A DNA stretch of 64,000 nucleotides from a bacterium (lineage in GTDB: Bacteria > Patescibacteriota > Minisyncoccia > Phycocordibacterales > UBA9973), in contig JBAXSP010000004.1 in assembly GCA_037130655.1 (NCBI GenBank), positions 337-64,336 of the forward strand. The letters are read 5' to 3'. Below the pieces are notes generated by a model. It searched no databases, was not told the origin of the DNA, and saw nothing but the letters and a program-made list of their open reading frames with translations. The position numbers and the translations under genes were made by a program. This document shows positions 377-63,238 of this stretch, one piece after another. Within the stretch, counting starts at the first letter, position 1. Every line of letters starts with the position of its first letter.

Positions 377-488
377 AATGACTAATTACTAATGACCAGT
401 GACTAGTAAAAGATTGATTTCACTTCGTGAAATCAATCTTTATTTATTTTTATATTAGTCATTAGTCATTGGACACTAGTCATTATTT
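377..488. repeat. Heptamer-array/terminator composite element, copy 1
   Basis: Left arm aatgactaattactaatgaccagtgactagtaa. Hairpin gattgatttcacttcgtgaaatcaatc followed by a T-run. Right arm ttagtcattagtcattggacactagtcatt. Sits between the PrgI stop and the VirB4-like start. Confidence 0.7.
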
Positions 489-891
489 ATTGCTGTCCTT
501 TATCCAAAACATCCAAACTCCATGCAATATCTCGAAGCTTTTCCTCGGTCAATTTATGGTTTGTGCCTGAGACAGGTGTTTGATCTTTTTTAATGATCTC
601 TTTTTTCTTTTGACCTGGCTGTTTCCAAATATACAGTTTGTTTGAAACAGAATAAGACAACCAAGATTGCAATATCACAATAAAAGGTTGATCATTTATC
701 TTATAAAATGCGAGCATGAGTGCAAGTCCCGCAAAAAATACCGCTACTGGCAGCCCCAAAAAAGACGGCAACAGCTTAAGCGACAAATACGTCAAACCCG
801 CACCACCTGCCAAATACAATGCTTGTTTCCAGGTAAGTGGACCAAAAATCTTGTCTTCGATATCAATAAATTGTGGTACTTTGAACTGCAT
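487..891 (-). CDS. PrgI-family small membrane protein (T4SS VirB3-like)
   Basis: 134 aa. The N-terminal MQFKVPQFIDIEDKIFGPLTWKQALYLAGG matches the characteristic PrgI-family signature (YxVPQ..E.EDKI.GP.T.RQ) and is followed by two hydrophobic helices. Confidence 0.6.
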   Translation of the reverse strand: MQFKVPQFIDIEDKIFGPLTWKQALYLAGGAGLTYLSLKLLPSFLGLPVAVFFAGLALMLAFYKINDQPFIVILQSWLSYSVSNKLYIWKQPGQKKKEIIKKDQTPVSGTNHKLTEEKLRDIAWSLDVLDKGQQ

Positions 892-917
892 AAGATAATA
901 GATACTTAATAATTAAC

Positions 918-1643
918 TTAAATTTCTTCGCGATAGACATCATTACTTCGAGAAGAGATGTTTTCTACTCTCGGCAGTGACTGGTCTGTCTTTGTACTAG
1001 GAATACCGAAACTACTATTTAGTTTTGTTTGGGCAATTCCTTTGAAAATAACTGGCTCACTTTTTGTTGGGTGCTCGATAGCTTCCATCAAATTTGCTTC
1101 ACTCATATTCTTGTTTGTAGTGTCGATTGCTGGCCCCATACGCTGTGTCAATTCATTTTGACTCGGCAATTCATCAAACGAAATTCCAGCATTTGAAAAT
1201 GTTTTCATTTCTCGCTTGTTGATATTTGCAACAATTTCATTTTCATTCGATTGAGGCTGAACAACCTCTTCTGCTGGCTCCTCTTCGATTTCAATTCCAG
1301 CATTATACATGATGTCTTCAGGCTCTTCTGGTGGTTTATATGAAAGCACGTCATTTTCTTCTGCAATAATAGCATTTAACGCTATTTTAAAAGGACCAAA
1401 AACTGTTGCATCGATATCTTTTATCATTGCAGACAATTGTGTGTCAGGTAGTCCTGTTTTTCTTAACTCTCCAGCAAAACCGTTCACATCAAGCGCTCCT
1501 TCAAGAAATTCTTTTATGATTGTTTGCATCATGTTAGTTTTTTCTTGTAGTCCATACTTGCCACAAACAACACCTATCAAATCATCTATCTTGATTTCAT
1601 GATATGCACCGTATATTTGAGTGATTGTTCCTAAGTTATTCAT
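918..1643 (-). CDS. Hypothetical acidic protein
   Basis: 241 aa ORF that is co-oriented and nearly contiguous with its flanking genes. No recognisable motif. Confidence 0.5.
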   Translation of the reverse strand: MNNLGTITQIYGAYHEIKIDDLIGVVCGKYGLQEKTNMMQTIIKEFLEGALDVNGFAGELRKTGLPDTQLSAMIKDIDATVFGPFKIALNAIIAEENDVLSYKPPEEPEDIMYNAGIEIEEEPAEEVVQPQSNENEIVANINKREMKTFSNAGISFDELPSQNELTQRMGPAIDTTNKNMSEANLMEAIEHPTKSEPVIFKGIAQTKLNSSFGIPSTKTDQSLPRVENISSRSNDVYREEI

Positions 1644-1646
1644 ATA

Positions 1647-4600
1647 TTATTTCTTTTCTTCTTTTGGTTTTCCTCCACTTTCTATTTTTTCTTTATTTTC
1701 TTTGATTTTTGTTTTGTTTGAATCAATTTGAGTAGTCAATGTCTCTTTTTGTCGAGAGAAATTTTTTCTATCAGATGAAACGCTTCCCAAGAATTTCATT
1801 CGAGAACGAATCTTATCGAGTTCTTTCTTATCTACTGTTCCGCTCTGTTCTTTTTGATACAATTCGTCTCGTAATGTTTCATTTTGTTCGAAGACATAAT
1901 CTTCTACTGTTGTAGTAATCATATCTTGCAACTGTTTCTCTTTTCGAATAATATTCTTAGCCATTTCTTCAGCTGATTTCTTTGCCTTCTTCTTCTCGTC
2001 ATCACTCAGTTCCGTGAAATTAGCAGCTTGTTTATCAGCATCAGTCATGTCAACAAACTTACCAGTTGCTGCGTCTCGTTTTTTACCAAGCTTCTTATTG
2101 ATTTCATCCTCTTCAGTAAGAATTGCTTTCTTTTCATCAACAATTTTCTTATATTCTTCATTGTTTGCTTTGAGGTCATCGATTTTATCTTTCAACGGCT
2201 TAAGTTCTGCGTTATTTTCTATCAAACCAGTATTTCTTGCCAATGCGCTTTCTGCTGCAGTAACTCTTCTTTCATTCTCTTTATTGGCGCGTTCAAGATC
2301 CTCATTTTGATTTTGAAGCTTAACTGCATCAGCCTTGGCTTTTTCACTTTGTTTTGCGTATTTCTCTTTGATATCTTTGTTAATACGATTATCAGCAACA
2401 GCACTTCCTAAAAGAGAAGCACCTACTACAGCACCGACACCTGTACCAACCAAAGCACTTCCTGCAACCGAGCCTGAAAAACGACCTGCACCACCAACAA
2501 CACCCGCAGCAACAACCCCTTGTGTAGCCCTGTCATTATCTTTTGACCTACCAATAAAGCTGGTTGCCTTATTGAGCACAGATCCGGTAACAGAGAAGTC
2601 GTCAAATCTTGTATCGAGACGTGCCAATAGTTTTTCAAGGCGATCATCTTCGACTTTTTTACGCATAGCTTTGATATCTTCTGGTTTTGCATCTTTACCA
2701 AGCTCTTCAAATCGCTTGCCATATTTTGCTTCGTGTTTTTTCTTGAATTCTTCTTCAAATTTCTTTTTCTCGTCGTCTGTTTTTGCTGCATAATTTGCTG
2801 CAATTTTTTCTTTTTCAATTTTATCTTTATATATTGTTTCGTACTTTTCAACCTGATTATCATGCATTTCTTTAAACTGAGTATCTGTGACATGTGATAT
2901 TTTTGATTGTCGCTCGATTTCTTTTTCCTTCTTTTCTTGTCGTTCTTTTTGATATGTAGCAAATCCTGTTTTATTTGCATCAAGACCAACGGCCCCCATA
3001 GAAAGACCGGCACCTCCAAGAAATGCATTTGTAGTTTTACCACTCATATCGAAACCTGATACCTTACTAAAACCACCTGACACCGCATTAAATCCTTTTG
3101 TATTTCTTACATCAAAAGAACCGTCTTTTGCTTTGTCAAAAGTTTTGAGACCAAGTTTTGCAAATTTACCACTAATACCACCTTTTGCTTCGGCCGCAGC
3201 CAATCGTTCAGCAAGCTTTGCTCCTGTCCCACTTGTTGCTGCAGCACCAAGTGTATTTCTTCCTATTAAAGCAGCTCCGCCAGTTGCCGCACCGAGAGCA
3301 ACACCACCAACAACACCTGCGGCTTGTGTAATTTTCCCTGCCAACTCCTTTGCAACTGATCCAGCCAAACTTACCGCAGTATCTTTTGCTTTTCCAAGCA
3401 TCACGATAATGAATATAAATGGCATGACAACTCCTAATATCCAAGAAGTGTTTGATTCGCCTGACTCCTTCAAAAGAGGTGCTCCGATTTGCACAAACAA
3501 CAATATCAAATACATAAACACCATAAAAATAGGTGCCATCATTGCTATCTTAAATGTCTCTTTCAACCAAGAATCAAATGAAATACCTCCCATTTTCCAC
3601 CCTTTTGGAAGAATATTAGAAACAAAAGCAAGTGGAGAAGTGATTGTCTGCACCCAAAGACCAATGACTCGTCCAACAAATAATATTCCTATCTTGAAGA
3701 AAATACCTGCACCAATCACATTAAGAATAACTGCGCAGATAGTAATGAGAATAAATGTAGTATTATCCAAATCACCACCACTACTAGCCTCGTTTCTTCC
3801 TGCATTTTTTGAATTTACATCATCATAAAGCTTGTCTTTTCCTTCGAGTACAATACGCTGTGGGTCGAAACCAGAAACAATCACCTCCGACATTCCATGA
3901 GCAACAGTTCGCTCGCCAGTACTTCTATCTATTTTGGTTATAGCGATTGTGTCTGAGTTATAAAACAACCTGGCCGTCACGTTCCCTGTATCAATAATAA
4001 TTCGAGTCAAGAAAAAACTAAAATTAATCGTAACCGCAGCAATAATAATCGGTATAATCATTTTTTTCCAATCAACACCACCTGTCTCAAGTAATGTACC
4101 GATTGCGATGTACATCATCATTACAATAAAAGCTATATTACAAAGATCACGCACAAGTGCCCACGCCTTTTGAACAAACTGCGATGAATTATCATAAGAA
4201 GAACTTTGAATCGAGTAGTCGAAAGTAAAATCAAACAACATACCCGCAACCATAAAGAGCCAAGATGTTGGTACATATAAAACATAATAGAGTAACTGCG
4301 CAAAACAACCTGACATCGAAATACCATCTGAAACACCCAGCCAGCATCTTGGCATACTTTCATCCGGATCAAGTGCACCTGCTTCACCTGACTGCTCAAG
4401 TGTGCCATTTGTCAATCCAATAGTTCCTTCTGCTTTATAATTAGCACCCCCAACCTGATCACTACCACCAGTCTTAAAAGTCATATTCTTAATAACATCA
4501 CCTCCTAGACCTTTATTAATTAATACTAATTGGGCAACATAATCAGTACCACTACCCAATCCCTCTATACGAAAAGATCCTTTTGTTTCAATATTTTGTG

Positions 4601-5135
4601 TATTAATTTGGATAGGAAATAAGAAAGCATTATTTGGAATAGAGCTGACACCCGAAACAGGAGTTGTTCCTTTATATACAACAATAAAAGCAGCATTATC
4701 TATTTTAATGTTTCTAATGGATTCATAATAAACAGCGCGAACCTTGGGAACGTCTTGCCCTGCGACTGTTTCTTTTTGAGAATAACCTATTTCAAGATCA
4801 TTCTTGCTATCAAAATAAACAGCGGATCCATATACCTGTACTTTATATGTACCATTGGCTTCTGCTGTTGGTTTATTGTTCCCAACATAATCATCTGCAT
4901 AATAATCAATTGTTTTCACTAAATTATTTGTTGAAACAAGGTCATATTCTATTTCATGTGTAGAATACCCTGTGTAATTACCTTTTGTACGAATATAACT
5001 TTTACTAAAATCATCGGACAAAGTAGATGCTTTTGCTATATTGGTAGAAAATCCTTGCAAAGAAAAAACAAGCGGAGAAAAAGCCAAGACTCCGAGAATC
5101 AAACTTATTACGCTCTTGGAAAAAAAGCGATACAT
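1647..5135 (-). CDS. Large polytopic membrane protein, possibly VirB6/TrbL-like, with Gly/Ala-rich and KE-rich coiled-coil C-terminal region
   Basis: 1162 aa. N-terminal signal/TM (MYRFFSKSVISLILGVLAFSPLVFS). The central region has multiple hydrophobic helices (e.g. LLYYVLYVPTSWLFMVAGMLFDFTF, IAFIVMMMYIAIGTLL, IIPIIIAAVTINFSFFLTRIIID). It sits in a cluster with PrgI and the VirB4-like gene. Confidence 0.4.
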   Translation of the reverse strand: MYRFFSKSVISLILGVLAFSPLVFSLQGFSTNIAKASTLSDDFSKSYIRTKGNYTGYSTHEIEYDLVSTNNLVKTIDYYADDYVGNNKPTAEANGTYKVQVYGSAVYFDSKNDLEIGYSQKETVAGQDVPKVRAVYYESIRNIKIDNAAFIVVYKGTTPVSGVSSIPNNAFLFPIQINTQNIETKGSFRIEGLGSGTDYVAQLVLINKGLGGDVIKNMTFKTGGSDQVGGANYKAEGTIGLTNGTLEQSGEAGALDPDESMPRCWLGVSDGISMSGCFAQLLYYVLYVPTSWLFMVAGMLFDFTFDYSIQSSSYDNSSQFVQKAWALVRDLCNIAFIVMMMYIAIGTLLETGGVDWKKMIIPIIIAAVTINFSFFLTRIIIDTGNVTARLFYNSDTIAITKIDRSTGERTVAHGMSEVIVSGFDPQRIVLEGKDKLYDDVNSKNAGRNEASSGGDLDNTTFILITICAVILNVIGAGIFFKIGILFVGRVIGLWVQTITSPLAFVSNILPKGWKMGGISFDSWLKETFKIAMMAPIFMVFMYLILLFVQIGAPLLKESGESNTSWILGVVMPFIFIIVMLGKAKDTAVSLAGSVAKELAGKITQAAGVVGGVALGAATGGAALIGRNTLGAAATSGTGAKLAERLAAAEAKGGISGKFAKLGLKTFDKAKDGSFDVRNTKGFNAVSGGFSKVSGFDMSGKTTNAFLGGAGLSMGAVGLDANKTGFATYQKERQEKKEKEIERQSKISHVTDTQFKEMHDNQVEKYETIYKDKIEKEKIAANYAAKTDDEKKKFEEEFKKKHEAKYGKRFEELGKDAKPEDIKAMRKKVEDDRLEKLLARLDTRFDDFSVTGSVLNKATSFIGRSKDNDRATQGVVAAGVVGGAGRFSGSVAGSALVGTGVGAVVGASLLGSAVADNRINKDIKEKYAKQSEKAKADAVKLQNQNEDLERANKENERRVTAAESALARNTGLIENNAELKPLKDKIDDLKANNEEYKKIVDEKKAILTEEDEINKKLGKKRDAATGKFVDMTDADKQAANFTELSDDEKKKAKKSAEEMAKNIIRKEKQLQDMITTTVEDYVFEQNETLRDELYQKEQSGTVDKKELDKIRSRMKFLGSVSSDRKNFSRQKETLTTQIDSNKTKIKENKEKIESGGKPKEEKK

Positions 5136-5157
5136 ATATACACAAAGTATATCACTG

Positions 5158-5258
5158 TCAGTTGATAGTTGTTAGTTGATAGTTGTGAGAAAAACAAAAG
5201 CGTGATGGACGAAGTCCATCACGCTTTTGTTTTTTATTAGTCACTAGTTATTGAACAT
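5158..5258. repeat. Heptamer-array/terminator composite element, copy 2 (variant left arm AGTTGAT/AGTTGTT)
   Basis: Left arm tcagttgatagttgttagttgatagttgtgag. Hairpin aaaagcgtgatggacgaagtccatcacgctttt. Right arm attagtcactagttattgaacatt. Confidence 0.6.
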
Positions 5259-5263
5259 TATAC

Positions 5264-7540
5264 TTATTGTCCAATTCCAAAGATTTTCTCAAATGTACTA
5301 CTGAAACCACATTTGTTTTTTGTATCATACAGTGGCTGTTGGCTTTGTTTAACACTATCATAATATGTCTTTCCTGTGTCATATGCTAAACCTAAATTAT
5401 ATCCATCTGACCAACTAATATCTGATTTACAATTAAATCCAATTCCATCACCTACTACACCTTGACCGTAGTCAAATGCTGCAAACGATCGCTGAACAGC
5501 ATCTTGTATGCCGGCCCACGGAACACCACCCTTTTGTTCTTTGTCTTCTTTTCCAAATGAATAAAATACATTCGTATTTGCATCTGCACGGGGATTGTTA
5601 TAATTAGTATACGAAACACTACCGTCTTTATTATACCGAGGAACATTAATCTTATAACCACCAACATCATCATCATCATCATACAAAGACTCACTTAAAT
5701 GTGTCCACGATAAAATCAATTCCTGTCCTTGTTTATGATTATCCCAACGACAATCTTGTGTATCCCCTGAGGCACTTGCTTGATCTGTGTCAAAAATAAT
5801 CGAACTATCAACATAAAATGGTGCGATTCGACGTTTTGGACTCTTTGATGGATCTGGCACCAAATCTCCATTTGCAATATCTTGTGTTTGCTCCTGACAG
5901 ATTGAGGTTAGTTCTTTGACGTAATTTTTTGAATTTTGTAATTCTTCAATATCATGACCGATACCTGCGATTGCTTCTGGTGTACGAATCTGTGGTAGTA
6001 ATCTGAAAAATTGTCTGAGCAACTTGTCATATTCCGCTTGTTCATCAGTTGTCAAAATAATTGGTGTATTTTGTCCTGAAGTACCATTTGAACAAGTATT
6101 TCCTGTAGTGTCTGGAACATAAGTATCAGTGTCGAAGAAATTATCCTTGTCGAGGTCTGGGCAGTATATTTTTTGCAAATTTAACGGAAGATTATCACAC
6201 AAATCAGTTCCTGTATTTGTTGTTTGTATTTGAATACTAGTATTTGCACGAAGGGTTTTACCTGCTTTAGTAACACAAGAGATAGCATAGCGTGAATCTT
6301 TGTTTTTTGGAGTTACTCCAAAATTTTGTACTGGAGTGGTGTTATCAGGTACAGGTTTTGAGCCGATCCATGACGATGTATCTACACCCCCAGTAGAAAC
6401 AGTTGCTCCTGCTCCGACTCCTTCACAAGAAGCAAATGCTGTGCCTGCAGGTGAAAACCAAAAGAGTGTACTTGTACCGTCTGGTTGCACCACTTCCGGT
6501 GAAGCAATCAAAGATAATTCTTTTGAAGCATCAGCATTTGGATTACATTCTGGCATCAAAACAGAAACATTTGCAGGATATATACTACAATCTTTTGTTG
6601 TATTCCCTGATGTTCCATCGTCAAGAATAAGTGCCACTTGAGCAACAACATATTCTTTTGGTGGAGTAGTGTCTGCTGTTTCTACCTGACTCTCTGCAGT
6701 ACCAAAACCAATAGTACTTGCAGTTTCAGTTTTTGCAGTAGAACTTAGTTGTGCTTGTACTGGTTTTTCACAGGTGAGCACATAGATAATTTCTTTGTCA
6801 CCATATGGCATTTGAGTTTTTTTGGTTTGCGGTTTTGTAGGTACTGGCTGTTTACCATTCCAGTTATATAACTTACTTTGTACATACGCAGTTGCGTTGA
6901 CACCTTTTGATTTCAAATCTTTTTGCTGATAGACCCCACCCGCATATGAACCAACGCAGCTTGCAAAATCCATTTTTGTTGGAGATGACCAAGAGATAGT
7001 GAGTTGATCTTTTGTTTTCGCCGTATCAGTTGAAGCGGTCACTACCAAATCTTTGGTTGCAATCGTATCTCTTTTGATTAACTCTTTGAGTGCATCCTCA
7101 TTGTTTGAGGGAATAGCAGAAGGTCCATTGTCTGAATTTGTATCTAATACATCTTGCAATAATTCAGTAGACGTATCTTTGCTATCAATAACACCATCTT
7201 TGTTGGTATCAATCACTGCATCTTTGTTGTTGATTACACCATCACCATTGGTATCTTTGGTTGGAATAAGTGAACCTTTTAAAGGAATAGTACTTCCGGT
7301 GGTTGATGATGCACTTGTGTTGTTTGTAGCATCTTCTGCTGTACCATTTTTGATGGTATCTTTTTTCTTTGGCAAAAGATTCCCAAGATCGACAAAAAAT
7401 TGCGCGCGTTGATTTGCGTCTTTGGTGATAGGATTTGCAACTTGCTTACTACCAATCAGTATCGCCAAAATTGCAACGACTAACACAACAAAAATAAGTG
7501 CTACTATTTTTATTCTTTTTTTCTTTTCTTCATTCATCAT
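5264..7540 (-). CDS. Secreted or membrane-anchored hypothetical protein with Asp-rich calcium-binding-like repeats (DTNGDGVINNKD / DTNKDGVIDSKD)
   Basis: 758 aa. N-terminal TM (IVALIFVVLVVAILAILIG), Thr/Ser-rich linkers, and tandem D-x-D-G-D-G-like repeats typical of thrombospondin type 3 or dockerin-like Ca-binding loops. Confidence 0.5.
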   Translation of the reverse strand: MMNEEKKKRIKIVALIFVVLVVAILAILIGSKQVANPITKDANQRAQFFVDLGNLLPKKKDTIKNGTAEDATNNTSASSTTGSTIPLKGSLIPTKDTNGDGVINNKDAVIDTNKDGVIDSKDTSTELLQDVLDTNSDNGPSAIPSNNEDALKELIKRDTIATKDLVVTASTDTAKTKDQLTISWSSPTKMDFASCVGSYAGGVYQQKDLKSKGVNATAYVQSKLYNWNGKQPVPTKPQTKKTQMPYGDKEIIYVLTCEKPVQAQLSSTAKTETASTIGFGTAESQVETADTTPPKEYVVAQVALILDDGTSGNTTKDCSIYPANVSVLMPECNPNADASKELSLIASPEVVQPDGTSTLFWFSPAGTAFASCEGVGAGATVSTGGVDTSSWIGSKPVPDNTTPVQNFGVTPKNKDSRYAISCVTKAGKTLRANTSIQIQTTNTGTDLCDNLPLNLQKIYCPDLDKDNFFDTDTYVPDTTGNTCSNGTSGQNTPIILTTDEQAEYDKLLRQFFRLLPQIRTPEAIAGIGHDIEELQNSKNYVKELTSICQEQTQDIANGDLVPDPSKSPKRRIAPFYVDSSIIFDTDQASASGDTQDCRWDNHKQGQELILSWTHLSESLYDDDDDVGGYKINVPRYNKDGSVSYTNYNNPRADANTNVFYSFGKEDKEQKGGVPWAGIQDAVQRSFAAFDYGQGVVGDGIGFNCKSDISWSDGYNLGLAYDTGKTYYDSVKQSQQPLYDTKNKCGFSSTFEKIFGIGQ

Positions 7541-7545
7541 ATATA

Positions 7546-9651
7546 TTAATGTACACCTACATTACCTGTTGTTCCATTGGCCGACCCAGTAGTGGTACCA
7601 TTTGTTGTATTGTTGGTTGTGTTATTACTTGTTGCATTCCCACCAATTCCTGTTGCAGTACCTGCGCCAGTTGTTGTACCTCCAGGACCATATGTTGCAC
7701 CACCGCCGACACTTGTCGTACCGTTGGCATTACCAGTATTTCCAAAAATTCCACCAAATGGTTCTATTGTGCCGAGACAAGCCGGATCAATTGGAAGTGC
7801 ATTAATATTATCTACTTGTACTTTTTGCCCTGGGCCATATTTTAGTTTTGCTTCATCCGCCAAACGTTTGTATACCCTATTCATCAAATTATCCATTTTC
7901 TTTTGAACTGCAAAAACTTGATTGGTTGTTGCCATAACATCGATAGCTTCGTTTTGATTGTCTAAAATTTGCTGTGAATATTGTGGCCACAGTTCAAGTT
8001 CTTTGTTGGCAGTTCTTGCTATCGGCATGACGTTTGGATTTGTCACATATGTGTTGCTGATGAAGTTGTTGTACAGATCAACTGAATCTCGATATGAACC
8101 ACGGAGTACAGAGAGGATGCCGTTAATGATTGTCTGAGCATCAATTGATTTCCAAAAACTCTGCCAGCCACTAACAGTAACACTTTTGATTAGAGCATTA
8201 TGCAACCCATCAAGACGACTATTGATAACAGCATCAGCATTATCTTCCCATCCAGGACGAGGACCAGGAATACAATAGGAAAGATCGTGCAGTGGGTACC
8301 CACACCAATCTGTTGTCATCTCATTCAAATTATCACTATATTTAGCCAAACTAGATTCATAGTTTACATTCCCTGAACCTGCACTTGCTTTGTTTAATTG
8401 CTTGATTCGACGAGCAACTGACGGAGCATCTTTGTTTGCACTATACTGATCGAGTGTTTTTTGGTCTCCAATATAACTGAGCTGTGTAATCAACACGTCA
8501 GGCAGTATTTCATGATCAAACACCCGTGGGTCGATTGGTTTGTTTGGGGCAACTTTCAACCAATCAGATGCATCACCATTCGTAAAACCACCACTAATAC
8601 CTGAGACGGAATTATTAAGCCCAGGACCACCTGATGCATAAGAATCGGTAGTTTTTCCTTTTGAAAGACTTGAAAGACCTCGTTTGATCAATTGATCGGT
8701 CAATGCAGTGAAGATTTTTGAAACAGACGTATTTACATCATTAGCGATTTCAAGTTGGCGACCCGTTGTCCCAAGTGCTTGATTGATTTGATTTTGCACC
8801 ACAGAACCAGGTGTGACCACCTCCCATCGATTACAAGTAACTTTTGGATCTGCTTTGTGTGCTTCGACATACCCTGCTGGGTCTACACATTTTTTGACTG
8901 ACAAAAAGTTTGGTTGTGACAATTCTGCTTGTACTGCGCCAACTTTTTGATTGATAAGCTTATCTGATTCTTCAGCAAGATTGATACTCACCCCTAGTGG
9001 ATTATTTCTTTCACTGAGTGTCACACTTTTCCAAGCAGCCCAACCACCACCTTCACTAAAATCTTTTTTGAACACTTTTGGATCAGGACCAGTATATTTG
9101 AAATTATCGAGCGGACTCAAAGATACTTTTCTGTCAGTAATCAATTGCCGAAGTGCAGATTTTGCATACGGAGAAAATGATGGGTCGTCTTCATATTTTG
9201 CAAGTAATCCATTTTTGAGACCATTGATTGATTCATTTTCAATACTCGCAAAAAAAGATTCACGATTTCGAATATACAGCGGATTTCCATCAAATCCACT
9301 ATTAATCCAGTTAACAATACTTTCAGTAAGTTGTTGTAATACTACACGAGCAAGAGATACAGCAATCGCATCAATACAAGCTTTTGTATTGTTTGCTTTT
9401 GCTTGTTGTTTGTCATCAACCTTAACAGCGGCAGTACCTAGTGTCGATCCAGCTTTTTCTTTTGCTTTTTCTTTAAGACCTGAAATAATTCCTTTCCCAA
9501 GCAAACAACCCGCCAATGAAGATGCTGTAGCCGAACCGAGCGAAGCACCAAGTGAAGCACCGTCGAGCGCTTCAGCTTTTGGAGGAATAGCAACAATCAA
9601 AAAACTAACGAGCAGTATTGAGGTGATTGTTTTTTTGAAAAAAGTAAGCAT
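7546..9651 (-). CDS. Secreted hypothetical protein with C-terminal Gly/Thr/Asn-rich low-complexity tail
   Basis: 701 aa with an N-terminal signal peptide (MLTFFKKTITSILLVSFLIVAIPPKAEA). The C-terminal ~70 aa are GTTTGAGTATG-type low complexity. Confidence 0.5.
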   Translation of the reverse strand: MLTFFKKTITSILLVSFLIVAIPPKAEALDGASLGASLGSATASSLAGCLLGKGIISGLKEKAKEKAGSTLGTAAVKVDDKQQAKANNTKACIDAIAVSLARVVLQQLTESIVNWINSGFDGNPLYIRNRESFFASIENESINGLKNGLLAKYEDDPSFSPYAKSALRQLITDRKVSLSPLDNFKYTGPDPKVFKKDFSEGGGWAAWKSVTLSERNNPLGVSINLAEESDKLINQKVGAVQAELSQPNFLSVKKCVDPAGYVEAHKADPKVTCNRWEVVTPGSVVQNQINQALGTTGRQLEIANDVNTSVSKIFTALTDQLIKRGLSSLSKGKTTDSYASGGPGLNNSVSGISGGFTNGDASDWLKVAPNKPIDPRVFDHEILPDVLITQLSYIGDQKTLDQYSANKDAPSVARRIKQLNKASAGSGNVNYESSLAKYSDNLNEMTTDWCGYPLHDLSYCIPGPRPGWEDNADAVINSRLDGLHNALIKSVTVSGWQSFWKSIDAQTIINGILSVLRGSYRDSVDLYNNFISNTYVTNPNVMPIARTANKELELWPQYSQQILDNQNEAIDVMATTNQVFAVQKKMDNLMNRVYKRLADEAKLKYGPGQKVQVDNINALPIDPACLGTIEPFGGIFGNTGNANGTTSVGGGATYGPGGTTTGAGTATGIGGNATSNNTTNNTTNGTTTGSANGTTGNVGVH

Positions 9652-9653
9652 AC

Positions 9654-10541
9654 TTAGTTGTTTTTTGGATTAAGTGCAAATAACTGACTACCTATTTCAG
9701 TAAATTCATCGTTATACTTTTTGTACTGAATAATACCGGGCATCGCTACAGTTGCATTATCATACAAAAGTGATAATTTTTTAAGTGCAATACCTACTTT
9801 GATAGAACTATTTGCAAAACGACGGTGTAATTCTACTACATCAGCAGGTACTTTCATTTTTGCAAGCGCACCACCGAGCCCTATATACGCATTACTTACA
9901 TCATCCAAATCTTTTATTCCGTTACGATCTTCATTTTGAAGTGTATACGCAAGTATACCAACCTCATTACCAGCGCCTTGTTTTTCATAAGTAGTGACAA
10001 TTGATTCTAATTCTTTCAAATATTTCTTCTTGTTTTCTACTGTCGAAGGAACACTGCTAATTTTTTCTTTTGAAATAGCGTCAGGCAAAGTATCGTCAGA
10101 AGTAATCTTGTCAGCCAATGTTATTGCGAGCACACTAGCTGATTCATCATTGAGCGCACCTGAGTCTTTGAGTACCATCAAAGAAGAAAAGAATTCTTGT
10201 GCGATTTTATCTGTTTCATTGGTGTCACCACCGCCATTTTGTGAGAGTGATTCACGTTTTTTAGATATATAAGTCAAATCATCAACACCATTGAAAGTGG
10301 CAACTTTTTTTGGATCAGTCCCCCAAAGTGATTCTTCCCAGTCAGCAACACCATCACCATCAGTATCGATAAACACCGCTTCTTTGAGTGTAGCGTTTTG
10401 AATTTTACCTTTTCTTCCGATAGAACCAACGAGACTAGACCAATTAACATATTTAACAAGCACCACAAGCAATAAAATCCCAATAATTATAAGGATTTTT
10501 TTTGAAAATTGTTTACTTGGAAGATATTGTTGAAATGACAT
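9654..10541 (-). CDS. Membrane-anchored hypothetical protein with DTDGDGVADWEE calcium-binding-like motif
   Basis: 295 aa. N-terminal TM (ILIIIGILLLVVLV). Its start overlaps the stop of the upstream gene, which implies an operon. Confidence 0.5.
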   Translation of the reverse strand: MSFQQYLPSKQFSKKILIIIGILLLVVLVKYVNWSSLVGSIGRKGKIQNATLKEAVFIDTDGDGVADWEESLWGTDPKKVATFNGVDDLTYISKKRESLSQNGGGDTNETDKIAQEFFSSLMVLKDSGALNDESASVLAITLADKITSDDTLPDAISKEKISSVPSTVENKKKYLKELESIVTTYEKQGAGNEVGILAYTLQNEDRNGIKDLDDVSNAYIGLGGALAKMKVPADVVELHRRFANSSIKVGIALKKLSLLYDNATVAMPGIIQYKKYNDEFTEIGSQLFALNPKNN

Positions 10542-11830: not shown

Positions 11831-11928
11831 GGAGCAAGTATATCAGTATTTCAGTAGTCAGAATATAGAAATAAAAAAAGGGCTTCGCAAGCGAAGCCCT
11901 TAAGGGTACAAAAGAAAAAAGAAAAGGA

Positions 11929-17779: not shown

Positions 17780-17970
17780 AATATATAGGATTATTTGCTT
17801 TTAAGTACATCTATTGTATTACACAAACACCCCATTGACCACAAAGAGGTGGTGCGTTAGCATTATATTTACGGGGTTCTCTGCCCTTTTATACTGATAC
17901 TACAGACACGATTTTATCCTTGTTTTTCAAGGAATTCTGCAAAACTGACCGATTGTAACACTCTATATAT

Positions 17971-19221
17971 ATGTGTAGAGCATCAAGAAAGCTTATTTAT
18001 ACAAAAAAACCAAAAAATGTTTCTTCCTCTCCTCGTACTACATTGAAGAAACAGTTATATCGAAACAAAAACCTGACACTTGGGACAGTGGCGTTATTTG
18101 CTATTTTTGCATACACAACAACAGACGCTACGGTGTTTGATAAAATCGCAGCCTTTTTCCAAAGCAAGCCAGTAGTCAAAAGCAATTCTCAGACAGTTGC
18201 ATTACTTGATCCACTCAACAGCACTGAGAATGCTGGTATTCCAGTCCTCTTAGAAGGAGATGATTCTCTTTCTGCCGAAACAGGACCAATGGGCACACAA
18301 GCTGATATTGAAGACTATTACCCAGCAAGTGATGAGATTCAAACATACACAACAAAAGATGGTGACACATTGAAAGGTATTGCAAAAATGTTTGACGTTA
18401 GTCCAAGTACTATTATCTGGGCAAACAACCTTGATACAAATACAAAACTAACAACCGGGCAAACATTGGTTATTCTCCCTGTTTCTGGATTACAGTATAC
18501 ACCTAAAAAAGGAGATACTGTTGGTGGGATTGCAAAACGTTTTGGTGTAGACCCTGAAGATATTACTTCTTTCAACGGCATTTCTACACTAACAACCGGC
18601 GAAGCAATCATTGTTCCAAATGGTGAAATGGAAAAACCAACACCTGTTGAGAAAAAACCAGTAAAACAAATAGCAAAAACAACTAAAGAACCGGTGATCA
18701 TCAAAAAAGGAGAAACAGTATTCGATAGAACAATTGGAAGTGTCTTTAGTCTTGCTGGTCCACAAAAAGGTGAAACTGTTGCACGCTCAAGACGTGGTGA
18801 AAAAATTTGGGGATTCAATGCACCGGCATTCAAAGATTACTATATCTTCCCGGTAGAAGGTGGAATCAAAACTCAAGATCTTCATGGATTCAATGGTATC
18901 GATATTGGATATCCTGGTAGAGCTGGTGGTGCCCCAATCAAAGCCGCAGCAGCAGGAACAGTCATTGTTGCAAAAGATACTGGGTCAAACGGAGGATACG
19001 GAAAATATGTCGTTATCGCTCACAACAATGGAACACAGACACTCTACGCCCACAACTCAAAAAATGCAGTCTCAGTTGGTGACACGGTCAAACAAGGAGA
19101 AGTAATTGCATATATGGGAAGAACAGGGAAAGCAACTGGATACCACGTACACTTTGAAATTCGCGGAGCCAAAAACCCATTTGCTACAAGTTTCAATAGT
19201 GACAATACAAGTAACGACTAA
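17971..19221 (+). CDS. LysM-domain M23-family peptidoglycan endopeptidase
   Basis: Two LysM repeats (YTTKDGDTLKGIAKMFDVSPSTIIWANNL and YTPKKGDTVGGIAKRFGVDPEDITSFNGI) and a C-terminal M23 signature (GIDIGYP...YVVIAHNNGTQTLYAHNS...GRTGKATGYHVHFEIR). The true start may be an internal Met. Confidence 0.85.
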   Translation: MCRASRKLIYTKKPKNVSSSPRTTLKKQLYRNKNLTLGTVALFAIFAYTTTDATVFDKIAAFFQSKPVVKSNSQTVALLDPLNSTENAGIPVLLEGDDSLSAETGPMGTQADIEDYYPASDEIQTYTTKDGDTLKGIAKMFDVSPSTIIWANNLDTNTKLTTGQTLVILPVSGLQYTPKKGDTVGGIAKRFGVDPEDITSFNGISTLTTGEAIIVPNGEMEKPTPVEKKPVKQIAKTTKEPVIIKKGETVFDRTIGSVFSLAGPQKGETVARSRRGEKIWGFNAPAFKDYYIFPVEGGIKTQDLHGFNGIDIGYPGRAGGAPIKAAAAGTVIVAKDTGSNGGYGKYVVIAHNNGTQTLYAHNSKNAVSVGDTVKQGEVIAYMGRTGKATGYHVHFEIRGAKNPFATSFNSDNTSND

Positions 19222-19322
19222 ATAATGACCAATTGCCAATGACTAGTGACTAAAAATCGTATGAAGACTTCGTCTTCATACGATTTTTTAATTGGTCATT
19301 AGTCATTAGACACTAGTCATTG
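19221..19322. repeat. Heptamer-array/terminator composite element, copy 3 (between convergent genes)
   Basis: taatgaccaattgccaatgactagtgacta / aaaatcgtatgaagacttcgtcttcatacgatttt / aattggtcattagtcattagacactagtcatt. Confidence 0.75.
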
Positions 19323-20876: not shown

Positions 20877-20977
20877 TAATGACCAATTACTAATGACCAA
20901 TGACCAATGACCAATAATTCGAAAAACACGAAGCCAAAGGCTTCGTGTTTTTATTAGTCATTAGTCACTAGTCATTA
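20877..20977. repeat. Heptamer-array/terminator composite element, copy 4
   Basis: taatgaccaattactaatgaccaatgaccaatgaccaata / gaaaaacacgaagccaaaggcttcgtgttttt / attagtcattagtcactagtcatt. Confidence 0.75.
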
Positions 20978-22321: not shown

Positions 22322-22361
22322 AAATATATTATAACAAATAATAATAATTTAATTGTATTAA

Positions 22362-22468
22362 AATGACTAATTACTAGTGACCAATGACCAGTATTTTGAA
22401 AACAAAAGAGGCGAAACAGAATGTTTTGCCTCTTTATTAGTCATTAGTCACTAGTCATTGGACATTGC
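22362..22468. repeat. Heptamer-array/terminator composite element, copy 5
   Basis: aatgactaattactagtgaccaatgaccagt / aaaagaggcgaaacagaatgttttgcctcttt / attagtcattagtcactagtcattggacatt. Confidence 0.75.
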
Positions 22469-22980
22469 TATCTGTATCCCATCAAATATTTTTTTGGATT
22501 ATCAGACAAATCAGTGAAGTCATCTACGACTTCGCGTAATTTTCCAGAAGTTGCTTTACCAAATGAAATAACTTCTACTTGTGTTCCGTAGGTATTTTGC
22601 AAATACTCTACCATCGGTATGAAGTCTCCATCTCCTGCCACAAGCACCACCGCATCAAGACGTGGTGCCATTTTCATTGCATCAACAGCAAGTCCGACAT
22701 CCCAATCACCCTTTTTGGCTCCGCCGGCAAATACTTGCAGGTCTTTTGTTTTTGTTTCAATACCAAGTTTTGTCAGTGCTTCAAAAAAGTTTTTCTCATC
22801 ACCTGCTTCACTGGTAATCACATATGCGATTGCACGCACCAGCTTTCGCCCCGCAATTGCGTCTTTGACCACTGCACCAAAATTAACTTTTCGTTTGTAC
22901 AAATTTTTTGCACTATGATACAAATTTTGTGCATCGATAAATACACCGACACGCTGTTCTTTATGTTTAATAATTGCCAT
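22468..22980 (-). CDS. NYN-domain (LabA/DUF88-like) protein
   Basis: VGVFIDAQNLYHSAKN...VVLVAGDGDFIPMVEYLQ matches the NYN/LabA nuclease fold. The start was moved to MAIIKHK at 22980. Confidence 0.65.
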   Translation of the reverse strand: MAIIKHKEQRVGVFIDAQNLYHSAKNLYKRKVNFGAVVKDAIAGRKLVRAIAYVITSEAGDEKNFFEALTKLGIETKTKDLQVFAGGAKKGDWDVGLAVDAMKMAPRLDAVVLVAGDGDFIPMVEYLQNTYGTQVEVISFGKATSGKLREVVDDFTDLSDNPKKYLMGYR

Positions 22981-35535: not shown

Positions 35536-35660
35536 ATAATGACCAATGTTCAATGACCAGTGACAAATAATTCGAATCAAAAGAGCGAAGCCGTAGGCTT
35601 CGCTCTTTATTATTTGGTGATTTTAATTAGTCATTGGTCACTAGTCATTAGACATTACTT
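35536..35660. repeat. Heptamer-array/terminator composite element, copy 6 (abuts the clpP stop codon)
   Basis: ataatgaccaatgttcaatgaccagtgacaaat / aaagagcgaagccgtaggcttcgctcttt / ttaattagtcattggtcactagtcattagacatt. Confidence 0.75.
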
Positions 35661-37470: not shown

Positions 37471-37594
37471 TAATGACTAATTACCAATGACCGATGACTA
37501 ATAATTTCGAACTAAAAAAAGCAAAACATTTCATGTTTCGCTTTTTTGGTTAATGTTGTTTTACTGGTCATTAGTCATTGGACACTAGTCATTG
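37471..37594. repeat. Heptamer-array/terminator composite element, copy 7
   Basis: taatgactaattaccaatgaccgatgactaataa / aaaaaagcaaaacatttcatgtttcgctttttt / ctggtcattagtcattggacactagtcattg. Confidence 0.75.
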
Positions 37595-38261: not shown

Positions 38262-38353
38262 AGAGTAAGTATACAACAAAGAAAAGTATAAGGAATTAGT
38301 ATAAGTATGAGGAAACAAAAGAGCGAAACCTTTCAGGTTTCGCTCTTTTGTTT

Positions 38354-40436: not shown

Positions 40437-40487
40437 TTATCCACAGGTTTTCAACATATTTTTTAGATTTTGGGGAGTTTATCCACA
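40437..40487 (+). promoter_or_regulatory. Two perfect DnaA boxes (TTATCCACA) upstream of dnaA
   Basis: ttatccaca at 40437-40445 and 40479-40487, within the AT-rich region preceding the dnaA start. Confidence 0.75.
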
Positions 40488-40503
40488 GAACATAAAAGCT
40501 ATA

Positions 40504-41856: not shown

Positions 41857-42236
41857 TAAATAAAATTGTGGATAAACCCTGTGGATACTGTGTGTAAAAG
41901 GATAGACAAGACTGTGAATAATAAAAAGTAAAAAGTGGATAAAAACAGGTGTGTAAAAGTTATATTTTTACCCCAAAGTTACCAACAGGATATTTTGTGT
42001 ATAAGTTTTACCAAAAGAAGCTTGTGGTATATAGAAAAAGAAGGTAATTAACACTATCAACAGACCTATCATAATCATCATATAATTATATATAATATAT
42101 AATATAACTATCTTAAAAACAGAAAACACAAAGATAGTTATATTTCGTCTTCGACTCGGACGACGTAAAAGTAACAATCTTTTACTCGCTCCTCGCTTGA
42201 CGAAATAACAACGTAAAAAATAATTAAACTAACGAC
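41857..42236 (+). promoter_or_regulatory. oriC: DnaA-box cluster plus AT-rich unwinding element between dnaA and dnaN
   Basis: tgtggataa, tgtggatac, tgtgaataa, agtggataa and tgtgtataa boxes. The 42070-42115 stretch is almost pure A/T (ataattatatataatatataatataact). Confidence 0.75.
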
Positions 42237-45785: not shown

Positions 45786-46025
45786 ATGACATACAACGAC
45801 GATACAGATAATCTTTATTGGGAAGATGACTTTGATGGTTCAACAAAGGGGCTTCATGATGAAAACGATGACGATCCATACACGGGTCATTTTGGTTTTA
45901 GTGTAAAAGATGGTGATGATGATGCTGATGTAGAAACAGCTCTTCCGTTGGAAGATGACGAACCGCTTATTGATGAAGACCTTGCTGGTCTTGCAGGAGA
46001 AAAAGAAGAAGAGGAAGCAGAGTAA
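45786..46025 (+). CDS. Small highly acidic hypothetical protein
   Basis: 79 aa with about 40% Asp/Glu. Confidence 0.35.
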   Translation: MTYNDDTDNLYWEDDFDGSTKGLHDENDDDPYTGHFGFSVKDGDDDADVETALPLEDDEPLIDEDLAGLAGEKEEEEAE

Positions 46026-46124
46026 TGTCTAATGACTAGTTACTAATGATCAATAATAAAACAACGAAGCCTATGGCTTCGTTGTTTTATGTTCGAAATA
46101 CTAGTCACTACTCATTAGTCATTA
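46023..46124. repeat. Heptamer-array/terminator composite element, copy 8
   Basis: taatgtctaatgactagttactaatgatcaataa / aaaacaacgaagcctatggcttcgttgtttt / atactagtcactactcattagtcatt. Confidence 0.7.
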
Positions 46125-49890: not shown

Positions 49891-50000
49891 TAGTGACCAG
49901 TTACTAATGACCGATGACCAATAACAAAAAAGTGACAACCAAGAGTTGTCACTTTTTTTATTCGAAACTATTGGTCACTAGTCATTGGTAATTAGTCATT
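49891..50000. repeat. Heptamer-array/terminator composite element, copy 9 (between the convergent tyrS and PilB-like genes)
   Basis: tagtgaccagttactaatgaccgatgaccaata / aaaaaagtgacaaccaagagttgtcacttttttt / ctattggtcactagtcattggtaattagtcatt. Confidence 0.75.
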
Positions 50001-50006
50001 ATCTCT

Positions 50007-51734: not shown

Positions 51735-51772
51735 AAGCAATGACCAATGACTAGTGACTAATGACTAATAAA
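51735..51772. repeat. Solo heptamer array (half element) upstream of the PilB-like gene
   Basis: gcaatgaccaatgactagtgactaatgactaataaaa with no partner arm or GC hairpin. It is followed by an AT-rich stretch and MITE copy C. Confidence 0.55.
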
Positions 51773-51862
51773 ATTTAAATTATAAAAAATAAATAATTAT
51801 TTTTTATAAAAATATATAAACTATTATTTAAAATAATTGCAATTTTTTTTCATGGAATGAAG

Positions 51863-51955
51863 GTGTGTTTTTCAGTAGACTCTGCGCAGACTGACGAGTC
51901 GAGCAAAGTAATTTTTCACCAGAAAAATATACGTGTCTACTGAAAAACAGCACCT
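51863..51955. mobile_element. MITE-like element, TTTTTCACCAGAAAAA-core family (copy C), flanked by an 8-bp direct duplication
   Basis: TIR gtgtgtttttcagtagac / gtctactgaaaaacagcac. Core gcgcagactgacgagtcgagcaaagtaaTTTTTCACCAGAAAAAta. Flanking direct repeats gaatgaag at 51855-51862 and 51956-51963. Confidence 0.6.
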
Positions 51956-52022
51956 GAATGAAGACTTGACAAACATATTGTATTGTGATACAATCTTGTT
52001 AGAAATCAAATAATATACAAAA

Positions 52023-55299: not shown

Positions 55300-55368
55300 C
55301 GACTAGCTCCTAGCATCTAGCTACTAGCTAAAAAAAGAACAGCGACCTTTGGTCGCTGTTCTTTTTTT
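55300..55368. repeat. Variant heptamer-array/terminator element (CTAGC-type arm)
   Basis: gactagctcctagcatctagctactagcta, then the hairpin aaaaaaagaacagcgacctttggtcgctgttcttttttt. The right arm is absent. Confidence 0.55.
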
Positions 55369-55406
55369 GGTGGAACTTGATTGTCTTTTTGTGTTACAGT
55401 GTCCAT

Positions 55407-58259: not shown

Positions 58260-58372
58260 GTTCTAGTGATTAGTTTCTAGTTGCTAGTAAAAACATAGAA
58301 AAAAGAGCGAAAACCTACGGTTTTCGCTCTTTTTTTGTTAAAACTAGAACCTAGTCACTAGCCACTAGAACC
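58258..58372. repeat. Variant heptamer-array/terminator element (CTAGT / ACTAGAA-type arms)
   Basis: ggttctagtgattagtttctagttgctagta / aaaaaagagcgaaaacctacggttttcgctcttttttt / aaaactagaacctagtcactagccactagaacc. Confidence 0.65.
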
Positions 58373-58394
58373 TATCACTTGCTATACTCTCTCT

Positions 58395-62460: not shown

Positions 62461-62487
62461 GCACAAATTGTGCAGTTTTTATTTTTG

Positions 62488-62560
62488 TCCCCTCGGTAGG
62501 AATCGAACCTACGACCATCTCCTTAAAAGGGAGCTGCTCTACCGACTGAGCTACGAGGGG
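62488..62560 (-). tRNA. tRNA-Lys (anticodon TTT)
   Basis: Perfect acceptor CCCCTCG/CGAGGGG, D-arm GCTCAGTCGGTAGAGC, anticodon loop CTTTTAA, T-arm TAGGTTCGATTCCTA. An unusual C at position 1. Confidence 0.7.
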
Positions 62561-62611
62561 TTGGTTATTTTTCGGCAAGTTGCTGAAAATATGTTATAAA
62601 AATAGCATTAT

Positions 62612-63115
62612 ATGAACAAAAGGTCAATAACCCAAAATGAAAAGAAGTTAATTTTAGTACTCGACAATATTCGCAGTGAACACAATACCGGTTCGCTTTT
62701 TCGTACTGCCGACGGAGCAGGGGTGAGCAAGGTTTTTCTTGTAGGCACAACACCAAAACCAATCGATCGTTTTGGGCGGCCAGTTGGCACAATTGCAAAA
62801 ACTGCTCTCGGTGCAGAGAAAACTATTCCATATGAATATTATGCAACCACCGAAGAAACAATTACTGTATTAAAAAAAGAGGGAGTACATATATATAGTC
62901 TTGAGCAAACAGCAAGTAGTGTTTCTTTGTTTGATGTTGAACCACAATTTCCGTGTGCACTTATCGTTGGTAATGAAGTTGATGGGGTAAGCAAAGAGTT
63001 TGTTGATGCAAGTGATACAGTGCTTGAAATTCCAATGAACGGTGAAAAAGAAAGTTTGAATGTGAGTGTAGCAGGCGGAATAGGATTATTTTTTCTTTTG
63101 CAAAAGAAAAAATAA
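62612..63115 (+). CDS. SpoU/TrmH-family RNA 2'-O-methyltransferase
   Basis: LVLDNIRSEHNTGSLFRTADGAGV, LIVGNEVDGVS, EIPMNGEKESLNVSVAGGIGLF are the SPOUT motifs. Confidence 0.8.
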   Translation: MNKRSITQNEKKLILVLDNIRSEHNTGSLFRTADGAGVSKVFLVGTTPKPIDRFGRPVGTIAKTALGAEKTIPYEYYATTEETITVLKKEGVHIYSLEQTASSVSLFDVEPQFPCALIVGNEVDGVSKEFVDASDTVLEIPMNGEKESLNVSVAGGIGLFFLLQKKK

Positions 63116-63127
63116 TCCTATTCCGCA

Positions 63128-63238
63128 AATGACCAGTGTCCCAGTGACTAATGACCAATAAAACTGAACAAAAAAAGAAATCTTTTTGGGATTTCTTTTT
63201 TTAAATATTAGTCACTAGTCATTGGTAATTAGTCATTA
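63128..63238. repeat. Heptamer-array/terminator composite element, copy 13
   Basis: aatgaccagtgtcccagtgactaatgaccaata / aaaaaagaaatctttttgggatttcttttttt / attagtcactagtcattggtaattagtcatt. Confidence 0.75.

Follow-up and report, generated by a model that had tools for sequence, protein, structure and literature searches.

Several families of short repeats are known from the ends of bacterial genes. In proteobacteria, repetitive extragenic palindromic (REP) sequences, bacterial interspersed mosaic elements (BIMEs) and REP doublets forming hairpins (REPINs) are inverted short repeats separated by a less conserved spacer; they form long hairpins, lie in intergenic regions, often at gene 3' ends, occur in many copies that turn over rapidly between relatives, and can affect termination or mRNA stability. 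The Correia elements of Neisseria are miniature inverted-repeat transposable elements (MITEs) with terminator activity, 100 to 150 bp long and bounded by terminal inverted repeats, which lie near genes and have effects on transcription. Among the short tandemly repeated repetitive (STRR) sequences, STRR2 of Calothrix, the subject of a 1990 report by Mazel and co-workers, is said to have the unit TTGGTCA. In filamentous cyanobacteria, STRR sequences have a repeat length of 7 bp and no known function; they can form intergenic hairpins, in some cases by the 3' end of the gene that precedes them (PMC2670836). The intergenic regions of Xanthomonas and Nostoc contain an excess of heptameric repeats, which prefer four units, form inverted pairs and vary between close relatives (PMC4692102), and the stop codons of TAACTGA repeats confine these to the space between genes, with a patchy occurrence among phyla (PMC4679880). 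In Neisseria and Pasteurellaceae, DNA uptake sequences are paired as terminators (PMC1852404). Here, we analyzed a 64-kb stretch of contig JBAXSP010000004.1 (64,000 nucleotides; the window), in which 13 elements, named E1 to E13, combine arrays of a degenerate heptamer with hairpins at gene ends.

Eleven of these elements are full (E1 to E9, E12 and E13) and two are one-armed (E10 and E11), giving a density of approximately one per 5 kb. A full element, 100 to 125 bp long, consists of a proximal arm (ATGACYA)4-5, an A-run, a GC hairpin, a U-run, often a TTCGAA box, and a distal arm (TRGTCAY)4, and the arm order (ATGACYA)n, centre, (TRGTCAY)n holds whichever strand is read. The arms, of approximately 33 nt, are terminal inverted repeats, so that the 11 full copies in 64 kb have the short, non-coding format of a MITE. 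With about even confidence, we propose that the elements are lineage-specific, non-autonomous and duplicatively copied palindromic repeats, REPIN- or MITE-like and terminator-carrying, of the STRR-type heptamer class. Judged from sequence, the described systems that would fit best are heptamer repeats of the STRR type acting like terminator-carrying REPINs or MITEs.

The likeness to STRR sequences lies in the tandem 7-nt units, the intergenic location, the number of about four units, the presence of some inverted, hairpin-forming pairs near the 3' end of the preceding gene, the strain-specific distribution and the insertions or deletions in 7-nt steps (PMC2670836, PMC4692102, PMC4679880); the TRGTCAY unit itself is common to the window and to cyanobacterial arrays. 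However, the host of the window is a member of the Patescibacteria and its arrays are fixed 33-nt arms around a terminator of 35 to 60 nt, whereas the cyanobacterial, planctomycete and phage loci that were sampled are without a terminator centre and mostly have the opposite arm order. With REP sequences and REPINs, the elements share inverted conserved repeats able to pair around a variable spacer, a 3'-end location and turnover between relatives, but their arms are tandem heptamers instead of a single imperfect palindrome, their spacer is a complete intrinsic terminator, and no RAYT gene was seen in Pfam scans of the 64 kb. Correia elements and other MITEs resemble them in size, terminal inverted repeats, presence or absence between relatives, proximity to genes and possible hairpin RNA, but the window elements have no separable target-site duplication, no common internal sequence and no known parent insertion sequence. 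DNA uptake sequences are likewise over-represented short motifs found as inverted pairs at terminators, and the host carries pilus- and competence-type genes; here, however, the motif flanks the stem instead of forming it, is restricted to intergenic regions, and is rare in sister genomes, being missing from most of the sister loci sampled. Finally, the TAACTGA repeats of Beggiatoaceae, Cyanobacteria and Bacteroidetes are stop-rich and intergenic, with a cross-phylum patchiness that suggests horizontal spread and no known mechanism, but they have another unit and form mostly direct arrays just upstream of start codons, not inverted arrays around terminators (PMC4679880). The original prediction, made from the letters of the window alone, had been aware of no described element with this architecture. 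This was too broad for tandem heptamer arrays near gene 3' ends, which are known (PMC2670836, PMC4692102), and it stands for the terminator-centred composite: our literature search found no description of it, nor of any such arrays in Patescibacteria, and searches with the literal repeat strings returned primers only.

Sequence as predicted was present at all 13 coordinates, and the arrays differ clearly from chance. The double heptamer TAGTCATTAGTCAT, allowing up to 2 mismatches, had 40 matches against 0.63 expected, and shuffled sequences never gave more than 2. A period-7 autocorrelation detector found 16 arrays compared with 0.2 in shuffles, and lags of 5, 6, 8, 9 and 10 gave 0 to 3. The array signal is non-random and specific to a period of 7. 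With a stricter detector, 18 arrays were obtained that form 8 pairs, in each of which (ATGACYA)n precedes (TRGTCAY)n across a gap of approximately 45 to 65 nt. All arrays in the window are intergenic and lie outside long open reading frames (ORFs). An independent Logan assembly (L001), with 100% translated identity over approximately 3.6 kb, contains the arm pair of E7, and the elements are therefore not an assembly artefact. The concentration of CTAG in the arms was also confirmed: 26 of the 78 CTAGs of the window fall inside the elements, which make up 2% of its bases, and outside them CTAG is four-fold depleted (52 observed versus 216 expected). Rfam at gathering thresholds returned only tRNAs for the window and 20 metagenome loci.

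The shared architecture claimed for all copies was found in the 11 full elements but not in E10 and E11, both of which are one-armed, although only the copy at 51735 had been noted as a half. Neither is a single degenerate heptamer used throughout, since the left arm of E2 is built of GTTGATA, E11 of CTAGCNN and E12 of CTAGNNN; these variant heptamers also put a TAG every 7 nt. Two features that the earlier description did not contain are the fixed polarity and the TTCGAA box, which follows the U-run in E4 and E6 to E9 and has a variant form in E5.

The evidence for copying comes first from the arms. With each element turned to the direction of its upstream gene, the arms aligned unit by unit across copies and showed a polarity in keeping with that gene. 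The form TRGTCAY-TRGTCAT-TRGTAAT-TRGTCAT-TA occurs in six of nine distal arms, the variant unit being third every time, and a seventh has TGGCAAT there; proximal arms include a GTGTCCA or ATGTCYA unit. It had been argued that the elements are not MITE-like because their centres differ. This argument fails, as the arms are homologous, polar copies and a module of arm plus hairpin occurs at non-orthologous sites. The two arms had also been proposed to extend the terminator into a long stem. Such pairing is possible, and whole full elements fold at -35 to -49 kcal/mol (-47.5 kcal/mol for E1). Nevertheless, the two arms of one element do not pair more stably (mean duplex energy -26.4) than arms drawn from different elements do (mean -28.8), the proportion of arm positions that pair on the alignment (81.5%) equals that obtained with partners shuffled among elements (82.2 ± 0.9%), and the arm alignment contains no covariation between arms above the partner-shuffled level. 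As own arms pair no better than swapped ones, the arm sequence is conserved and not its complementarity, and the proposal does not hold for a selected stem extension with element-specific pairing.

The second line of evidence is the comparison with sister contigs from two or three close relatives of approximately 79 to 91% nucleotide identity (L209 and L335, from SRR21915726, and L213, L214 and L336). At the 8 orthologous sites examined, the sisters in no case carry the element of the window. At the sites of E3 and E4 (in L213) and of E5, they have plain terminators whose hairpins are unrelated to those of the window. In L209, the E7 site is empty (10 nt versus 118 nt in the window) and the E6 site is occupied by a different 600-nt segment with an extra gene. 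At the E8 site, L335 has the same architecture, but its arms, (TTAGTAG)n ... (CTACTAA)n, are of a different heptamer and its hairpin is also a different one, and L336 has a naked terminator. The E9 site of L335 and L336 retains an orthologous proximal arm minus one unit, with a different hairpin and without a distal arm. Both also lack E10, together with the whole A/T-rich insertion of approximately 200 nt that adjoins it in the window (51773-51965); this insertion holds an A/T-only hairpin at approximately 51790-51820 and a longer inverted repeat, gtgtttttcagtagac ... gtctactgaaaaacagcac, at approximately 51866-51945.

As a yardstick, the naked terminators behind tig and ppa could be aligned between the window and its sisters as orthologs that carry compensatory changes, and promoter regions are more than 90% identical. 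Because the orthologous hairpins at E3 to E5 are unrelated while naked terminators are conserved, growth of the arms around pre-existing terminators at these sites was rejected. In addition, the hairpin of E6, at clpP, is identical in 30 of 30 positions to the hairpin at the tyrS site of L335 and L336, where it has the same orientation relative to the gene and adjoins a similar arm. These alignments show that the arms are homologous and polar, that presence, arm type and hairpin vary between the sisters at one site, and that the module recurs elsewhere. Units are also gained and lost in 7-nt steps, the E9 arm differing from the sister arm by exactly one unit. The E10 copy lies in a promoter region instead of at a 3' end, which was likewise counted in favor of copying.

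Other heptamers are used in the same way by the relatives. L209 carries one-sided arrays of the CTAGC type, the same as in E11, past the stops of nusA, ppa and rny, and the more distant relative L210 has four TAG-N4 units between a stop and a terminator. The ATGACYA type is represented in the sampled sister loci (L209, L213, L335 and L336; approximately 41 kb) solely by the proximal arm after tyrS, one per genome. The clade as a whole is thus characterized by heptamer arrays at gene ends, in which the combination of heptamer, gene and hairpin changes fast. In L209, nusA and ppa, which directly adjoin each other in the window, are separated by an 80-nt insertion (2172-2256); this is mostly a CTAG-type heptamer array that runs up to the ppa start codon without a terminator, a position that resembles that of the TAACTGA repeats of Beggiatoaceae.

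Copies could spread by copying or by recombination between arms, with a trans-acting transposase or gene conversion between arms as candidate agents; array length would change by replication slippage, and centres may be exchanged between copies. Because the arms hold stops in all frames of both strands and the centre terminates transcription, insertion elsewhere would probably be harmful, and copies would persist almost only at gene 3' ends. There, a cassette could displace the resident terminator and then act as a largely bidirectional intrinsic terminator, its proximal arm separating the last sense codon from the hairpin by 25 to 35 nt that hold stops in every frame.

Several observations weigh against this proposal. 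Pfam scans of essentially all ORFs of the 64 kb revealed no transposase, RAYT/Y1 transposase, HutP or TRAP, and there is no candidate mobilizing gene within the 64 kb, which represent the source genome only near its replication origin. When 7,105 ORFs from 327 loci with arrays were clustered all against all, no protein family was seen to recur beside the arrays; the clusters were generic families (histidine kinases, ABC ATPases and SDR dehydrogenases), related phage genes and translations of arrays with the sequence IGHWSFV. A co-occurring DNA-binding protein family, suggested as a check by the original prediction, was likewise not recurrent in these loci. A target-site duplication is inseparable from the repeat: flanking TA...TA is common, yet it is part of the unit, and the flanks of empty sites are unalignable. 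Most centres cannot be aligned with one another, so that hairpins must either turn over fast or be exchanged between copies. Moreover, the stop series of the array is in phase (modulo 7) with the gene's own stop at 12 of 22 gene ends, against approximately 6 expected, and the ppa and rny arrays of L209 adjoin hairpins that are conserved in the window, where the arrays are absent. Local slippage therefore fits these last observations as well as transposition does, or better.

The same observations belong to an account in which the elements arose in place, without mobility: a stop-containing 7-nt unit would be duplicated by slippage between stop and terminator, the only harmless place, and the array would then be copied across the hairpin by intrastrand template switching (palindrome extension). 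This gives a good account of the minor heptamer types and of one-sided arrays beside conserved hairpins, and it is consistent with heptamers that differ by site and genome, even at one site (E8 compared with L335), and with the single whole unit that separates the E9 arm from its sister ortholog. In many bacteria, according to two reports, the most frequent long simple repeats are heptameric, and polymerase slippage is proposed to cause them (PMC4679880; PMC4692102). However, nine elements have the same arm sequence, the same position of the variant unit and the same asymmetry between proximal and distal arms, which independent slippage and palindrome formation would not repeat. Hairpins at armed sites are unrelated to their sister orthologs whereas naked ones are conserved, an identical module lies at non-orthologous sites, and the identical heptamer occurs in unrelated phyla. 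We regard a purely local origin as quite unlikely, and duplicatively copied, terminator-carrying repeats as the preferred reading.

Next, we considered what the elements would do at the ends of genes. In all 11 full elements and in E11, the centre folds as a hairpin flanked by A- and T-runs, with 4 to 7 U behind the stem; the folds of the full-element centres range from -12 to -32 kcal/mol, and 7 element centres are listed by a simple terminator scan of the window. This is the form of an intrinsic terminator, a GC-rich stem-loop with a U-tract behind it at the end of a gene, and the centres are predicted from scan, folds and runs to be credible, mostly bidirectional terminators, in agreement with the original prediction. 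Its statement that the hairpin differs in every copy requires some correction, as E4 and E8 share 18 of 19 bases and the stems of E6 and E12 are similar by eye; with few exceptions, the remaining centres are largely unalignable between copies. A stem base, AAAGAGCGA...TCGCTCTTT, is common to many terminators of the clade, armed or naked (window 38320-38353, 35580-35608 and 58299-58335; L209 2855-2880 and 7836-7866; L335 9947-9976), which suggests that hairpins themselves are copied between sites or that they obey an odd common constraint. A second short repeat, TCAGAATATAG, also with TCAGTAT/TCAGTAG units at a period of 7 to 14 nt, was seen at 11840-11877 and 33760-33805 of the window, where it adjoins two naked terminators, at 11878-11901 and after rny. 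A promoter function of the arms was considered and rejected, as -35-like matches are weak and show no excess over shuffles.

All copies had been said to lie 3' of a stop codon, which is the case for 12 of 13; E10 lies upstream of a start codon. In these 12, the outer arm end falls between -10 and +13 nt from the stop codon. The adjoining stop is always that of the upstream gene in co-directional pairs; in convergent pairs both stops are near in 3 of 4 cases, the second gene's stop being 147 nt away at E13. Direct abutment on stops was also confirmed, since the arm itself supplies the stop of comM, clpP, the 70-aa gene and the 79-aa ORF (E3, E6, E7 and E8, respectively), as were multi-frame stops, all three frames being shut 14 to 35 nt past the stop in 21 of the 22 gene ends examined. 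For annotation, arms are likely to furnish stop codons and to spawn short spurious ORFs.

These positions and closed frames would be expected if the host had selected the arms as punctuation, stopping ribosomes in all frames of both strands ahead of the hairpin, insulating neighboring genes and letting the terminator fold; the paired arms might, in addition, mark read-through RNA for RNase III. A stop triplet is contained in each independent heptamer type of the clade (ATGACYA, CTAGCNN, TTAGTAG and TAGTWWA), CTAG is tolerated in the arms though avoided in the rest of the window, and the phase agreement described above points the same way. A passage in one report states that, in E. coli, a stop codon too near the terminator represses termination (PMC4824070), and a spacer of 25 to 35 nt provided by the proximal arm is therefore plausible. 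Nevertheless, the window contains approximately 13 terminators of comparable strength without arms, i.e., about half of the strong ones, and the sisters end the same genes without such arms. Covariation between arms is absent, arms elsewhere flank centres that are not terminators, with gene starts about as often as gene ends beside them in a crude test, and in an AT-rich genome stops are frequent in non-coding DNA regardless. We consider selected punctuation unlikely, and the genome-wide module of the original prediction was not borne out: all-frame stops and long-stem potential come with the heptamer and are not demonstrably selected.

That conservation lies in arm sequence and not in pairing is also what binding arrays for a sequence-specific factor would show, such as an RNA-binding anti-terminator of the HutP/TRAP type, which reads UAG or GAG triplets at a constant spacing, a DNA-uptake receptor for terminator-paired uptake sequences like those of Neisseria and Haemophilus, or another DNA-binding protein. 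UAG-N4 arrays, whose spacing is that of HutP sites, stand directly upstream of terminators in E11, E12, L209 and L210, the genome carries pilB and a comM-like gene, and the heptamer is retained even at 60 to 68% GC. However, UAG-N4 arrays are limited to E11, E12 and some loci of these two relatives, and the main proximal arm, (AUGACYA)n, is poor in UAG. The Pfam scans found no HutP or TRAP gene in the window, no gene family recurs beside arrays, and a motif that is absent from coding DNA and reduced to one proximal arm per sister is unlike an uptake sequence. Binding arrays are, in our judgement, an improbable explanation of these elements.

The same heptamer is found far outside the clade. 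(TRGTCAY)3 occurs in 87 stretches of viral contigs, where roughly one would be expected by chance, and in at least 120 stretches of species-representative genomes; 69 of the 80 listed are cyanobacterial, with the TRGTCAY unit abundant in Nostoc, Microcoleus, Anabaena and others among the matches listed, and the other carriers listed belong to Planctomycetota, Bacteroidota, Acidobacteriota, Myxococcota and others, with GC contents up to 68%. Inverted pairs in the sampled cyanobacterial, planctomycete and phage loci mostly have the opposite order and a gap of 3 to 20 nt (24 versus 6 cases). A composite pattern of two ATGACYA, 35 to 65 nt and two TRGTCAY matched at least 120 stretches in metagenomes, with a median GC content of 61%. 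Many of these form one family, ATGACCA-ATGACCA-AGCACCA-ATGACCA ... TGGTCAT-TGGGATT-TGGTCAT-TGGTCAT, with strongly conserved asymmetric arms around a hypervariable centre of 13 to 25 nt; neither a literature description nor an Rfam match was found for it. None of the metagenome inverted elements among the matches listed has a terminator-type centre with A-run and T-run. Since spurious long ORFs in GC-rich loci stop at any AT-rich array, an ORF-end test is uninformative there; a crude GC3-phase test, used in its place, showed that the metagenome elements flank gene starts as often as gene ends. Long (TGGTCAT)n arrays were also seen in cyanobacterial and other loci (L156 1952-2300 and eight more) with one frame open, encoding IGHWSFV repeats, and gene callers may call them proteins.

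A broader reading, offered tentatively and with clear doubt, is that the TRGTCAY/ATGACYA inverted elements may be one cross-phylum family kept by sequence-specific machinery, which in this reduced genome would have become portable terminator cassettes that overwrite resident terminators. Such a family would span Cyanobacteria, Planctomycetota, Bacteroidota, mostly GC-rich uncultured metagenome bacteria, phages and this member of the Patescibacteria, and its machinery could be a new type of mobilizing enzyme or a nucleic-acid-binding protein that reads the heptamer.

The coordinates of the elements and their settings are collected in Table 1.

Table 1. Elements E1 to E13 of the window and examples of the metagenome family (within L215-L334; coordinates of the respective locus)
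Element	Position	Strand	Type	Arms, centre and box	Neighboring genes and stops
E1	376..486	-	full	arms 376-408 and 454-486; hairpin 409-441	PrgI-like gene stop 487-489 on one side; next minus-strand gene (start 356) on the other
E2	5158..5258	-	full, unlike arms	left arm (GTTGATA/GTTGTTA)4 5158-5188; right arm a short TAGTCAC/TAGTTAT array 5236-5258; hairpin 5191-5233	stop of 758-aa gene 5 nt off
E3	19223..19322	-	full	hairpin ~19255-19288	between convergent M23 peptidase and comM-like genes; M23 peptidase stop 1 nt off; TAG stop of comM-like gene from within arm
E4	20877..20977	-	full	left arm 5 units; hairpin ~20924-20952; TTCGAA box	3' of dksA/traR-type zinc-finger gene, stop 4 nt off
E5	22361..22474	-	full	hairpin ~22406-22435	3' of NYN-domain gene; arm begins 2 nt past TAG stop
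E6	35537..35659	-	full	hairpin 35580-35608; TTCGAA box	first triplet of arm is clpP TAA stop
E7	37471..37594	-	full	hairpin ~37519-37549; TTCGAA box	between conserved 70-aa gene and tig; TGA stop of 70-aa gene supplied by arm
E8	46023..46124	+	full	hairpin ~46057-46090; TTCGAA box	between convergent 79-aa ORF and PBP1 gene; both stops <=3 nt from arms
E9	49891..50001	+	full	hairpin 49926-49958; TTCGAA box	between convergent tyrS and pilB; tyrS 3' end in frame is TAA TAG TGA
E10	51738..51772	+	half	lone (ATGACYA)4-5 arm, then A/T-only inverted repeat	divergent intergenic region, 27 nt upstream of pilB start
E11	55302..55371	+	half	(CTAGCNN)4 55302-55332, then terminator hairpin ~55333-55368	3' of DUF11 protein gene
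E12	58261..58374	+	full	CTAG-type arms; hairpin 58299-58335	3' of polA; polA TAG is first of five TAGs with period 7
E13	63129..63238	+	full	hairpin ~63170-63204	13 nt past SpoU methylase stop
Metagenome family, L235	1090-1162				
Metagenome family, L245	369-441				
Metagenome family, L217	709-791				

The window has a GC content of 38% and includes the replication origin, with dnaA at 40504-41856, dnaN at 42237-43334 and a change in the sign of GC skew at approximately 40 kb; AT-rich spacers flank dnaA on both sides (40230-42236), and gene orientation flips along with the skew. Its gene content is typical of Patescibacteria, with a trigger factor lacking the peptidyl-prolyl isomerase (PPIase) domain, a PrgI-like type IV secretion gene, pilB and a comM-like gene, and the closest named homologs of Tig, ComM and TyrRS come from Patescibacteria, Paceibacterota, Nomurabacteria, Wolfebacteria and Vogelbacteria. 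By these homologies, the host would be a Patescibacteria genome of the Paceibacteria type and not a (heterocystous) cyanobacterium, unlike the carriers of STRR sequences. The trigger factor (36363-37430) has 355 aa and consists of N- and C-terminal domains without the PPIase domain, a length matched in more than 100 Patescibacteria homologs. In L210, a reverse-transcriptase-like gene lies just upstream of tig and a Ro60/TROVE-vWA gene lies nearby (8926-9942 and 17784-19436). At 487-9651 and 14831-17779 of the window, the PrgI-like gene is followed by proteins of 241, 1162, 758, 701 and 982 aa without a Pfam family, and these giant proteins and the PrgI-like gene presumably represent a type IV secretion or conjugation-like surface apparatus. 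Recoding of UGA was rejected, as long ORFs are normal under table 11 and TGA is the stop in 6 of 65 genes.

Heptamer repeats of the STRR type have been targets of fingerprinting for decades, and their origin and function have stayed unexplained. Here, the same type of unit forms the fixed polar arms of a dispersed, terminator-centred element in a genome small enough for each copy to be compared with its sisters, and the comparison points to wholesale replacement of terminators and to modules that move between genes. It provides evidence that regulatory DNA at 3' ends turns over in the Patescibacteria, an uncultured lineage of the candidate phyla radiation. Inverted arrays of the exact heptamer are very common in environmental bacteria, even above 60% GC, which argues for a sequence-specific cause, and the most interesting question is why one AT-rich heptamer recurs as inverted arms over phyla and GC contents. 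If true, the tentative cross-phylum family would be a tractable model for the 35-year-old puzzle of the STRR sequences.

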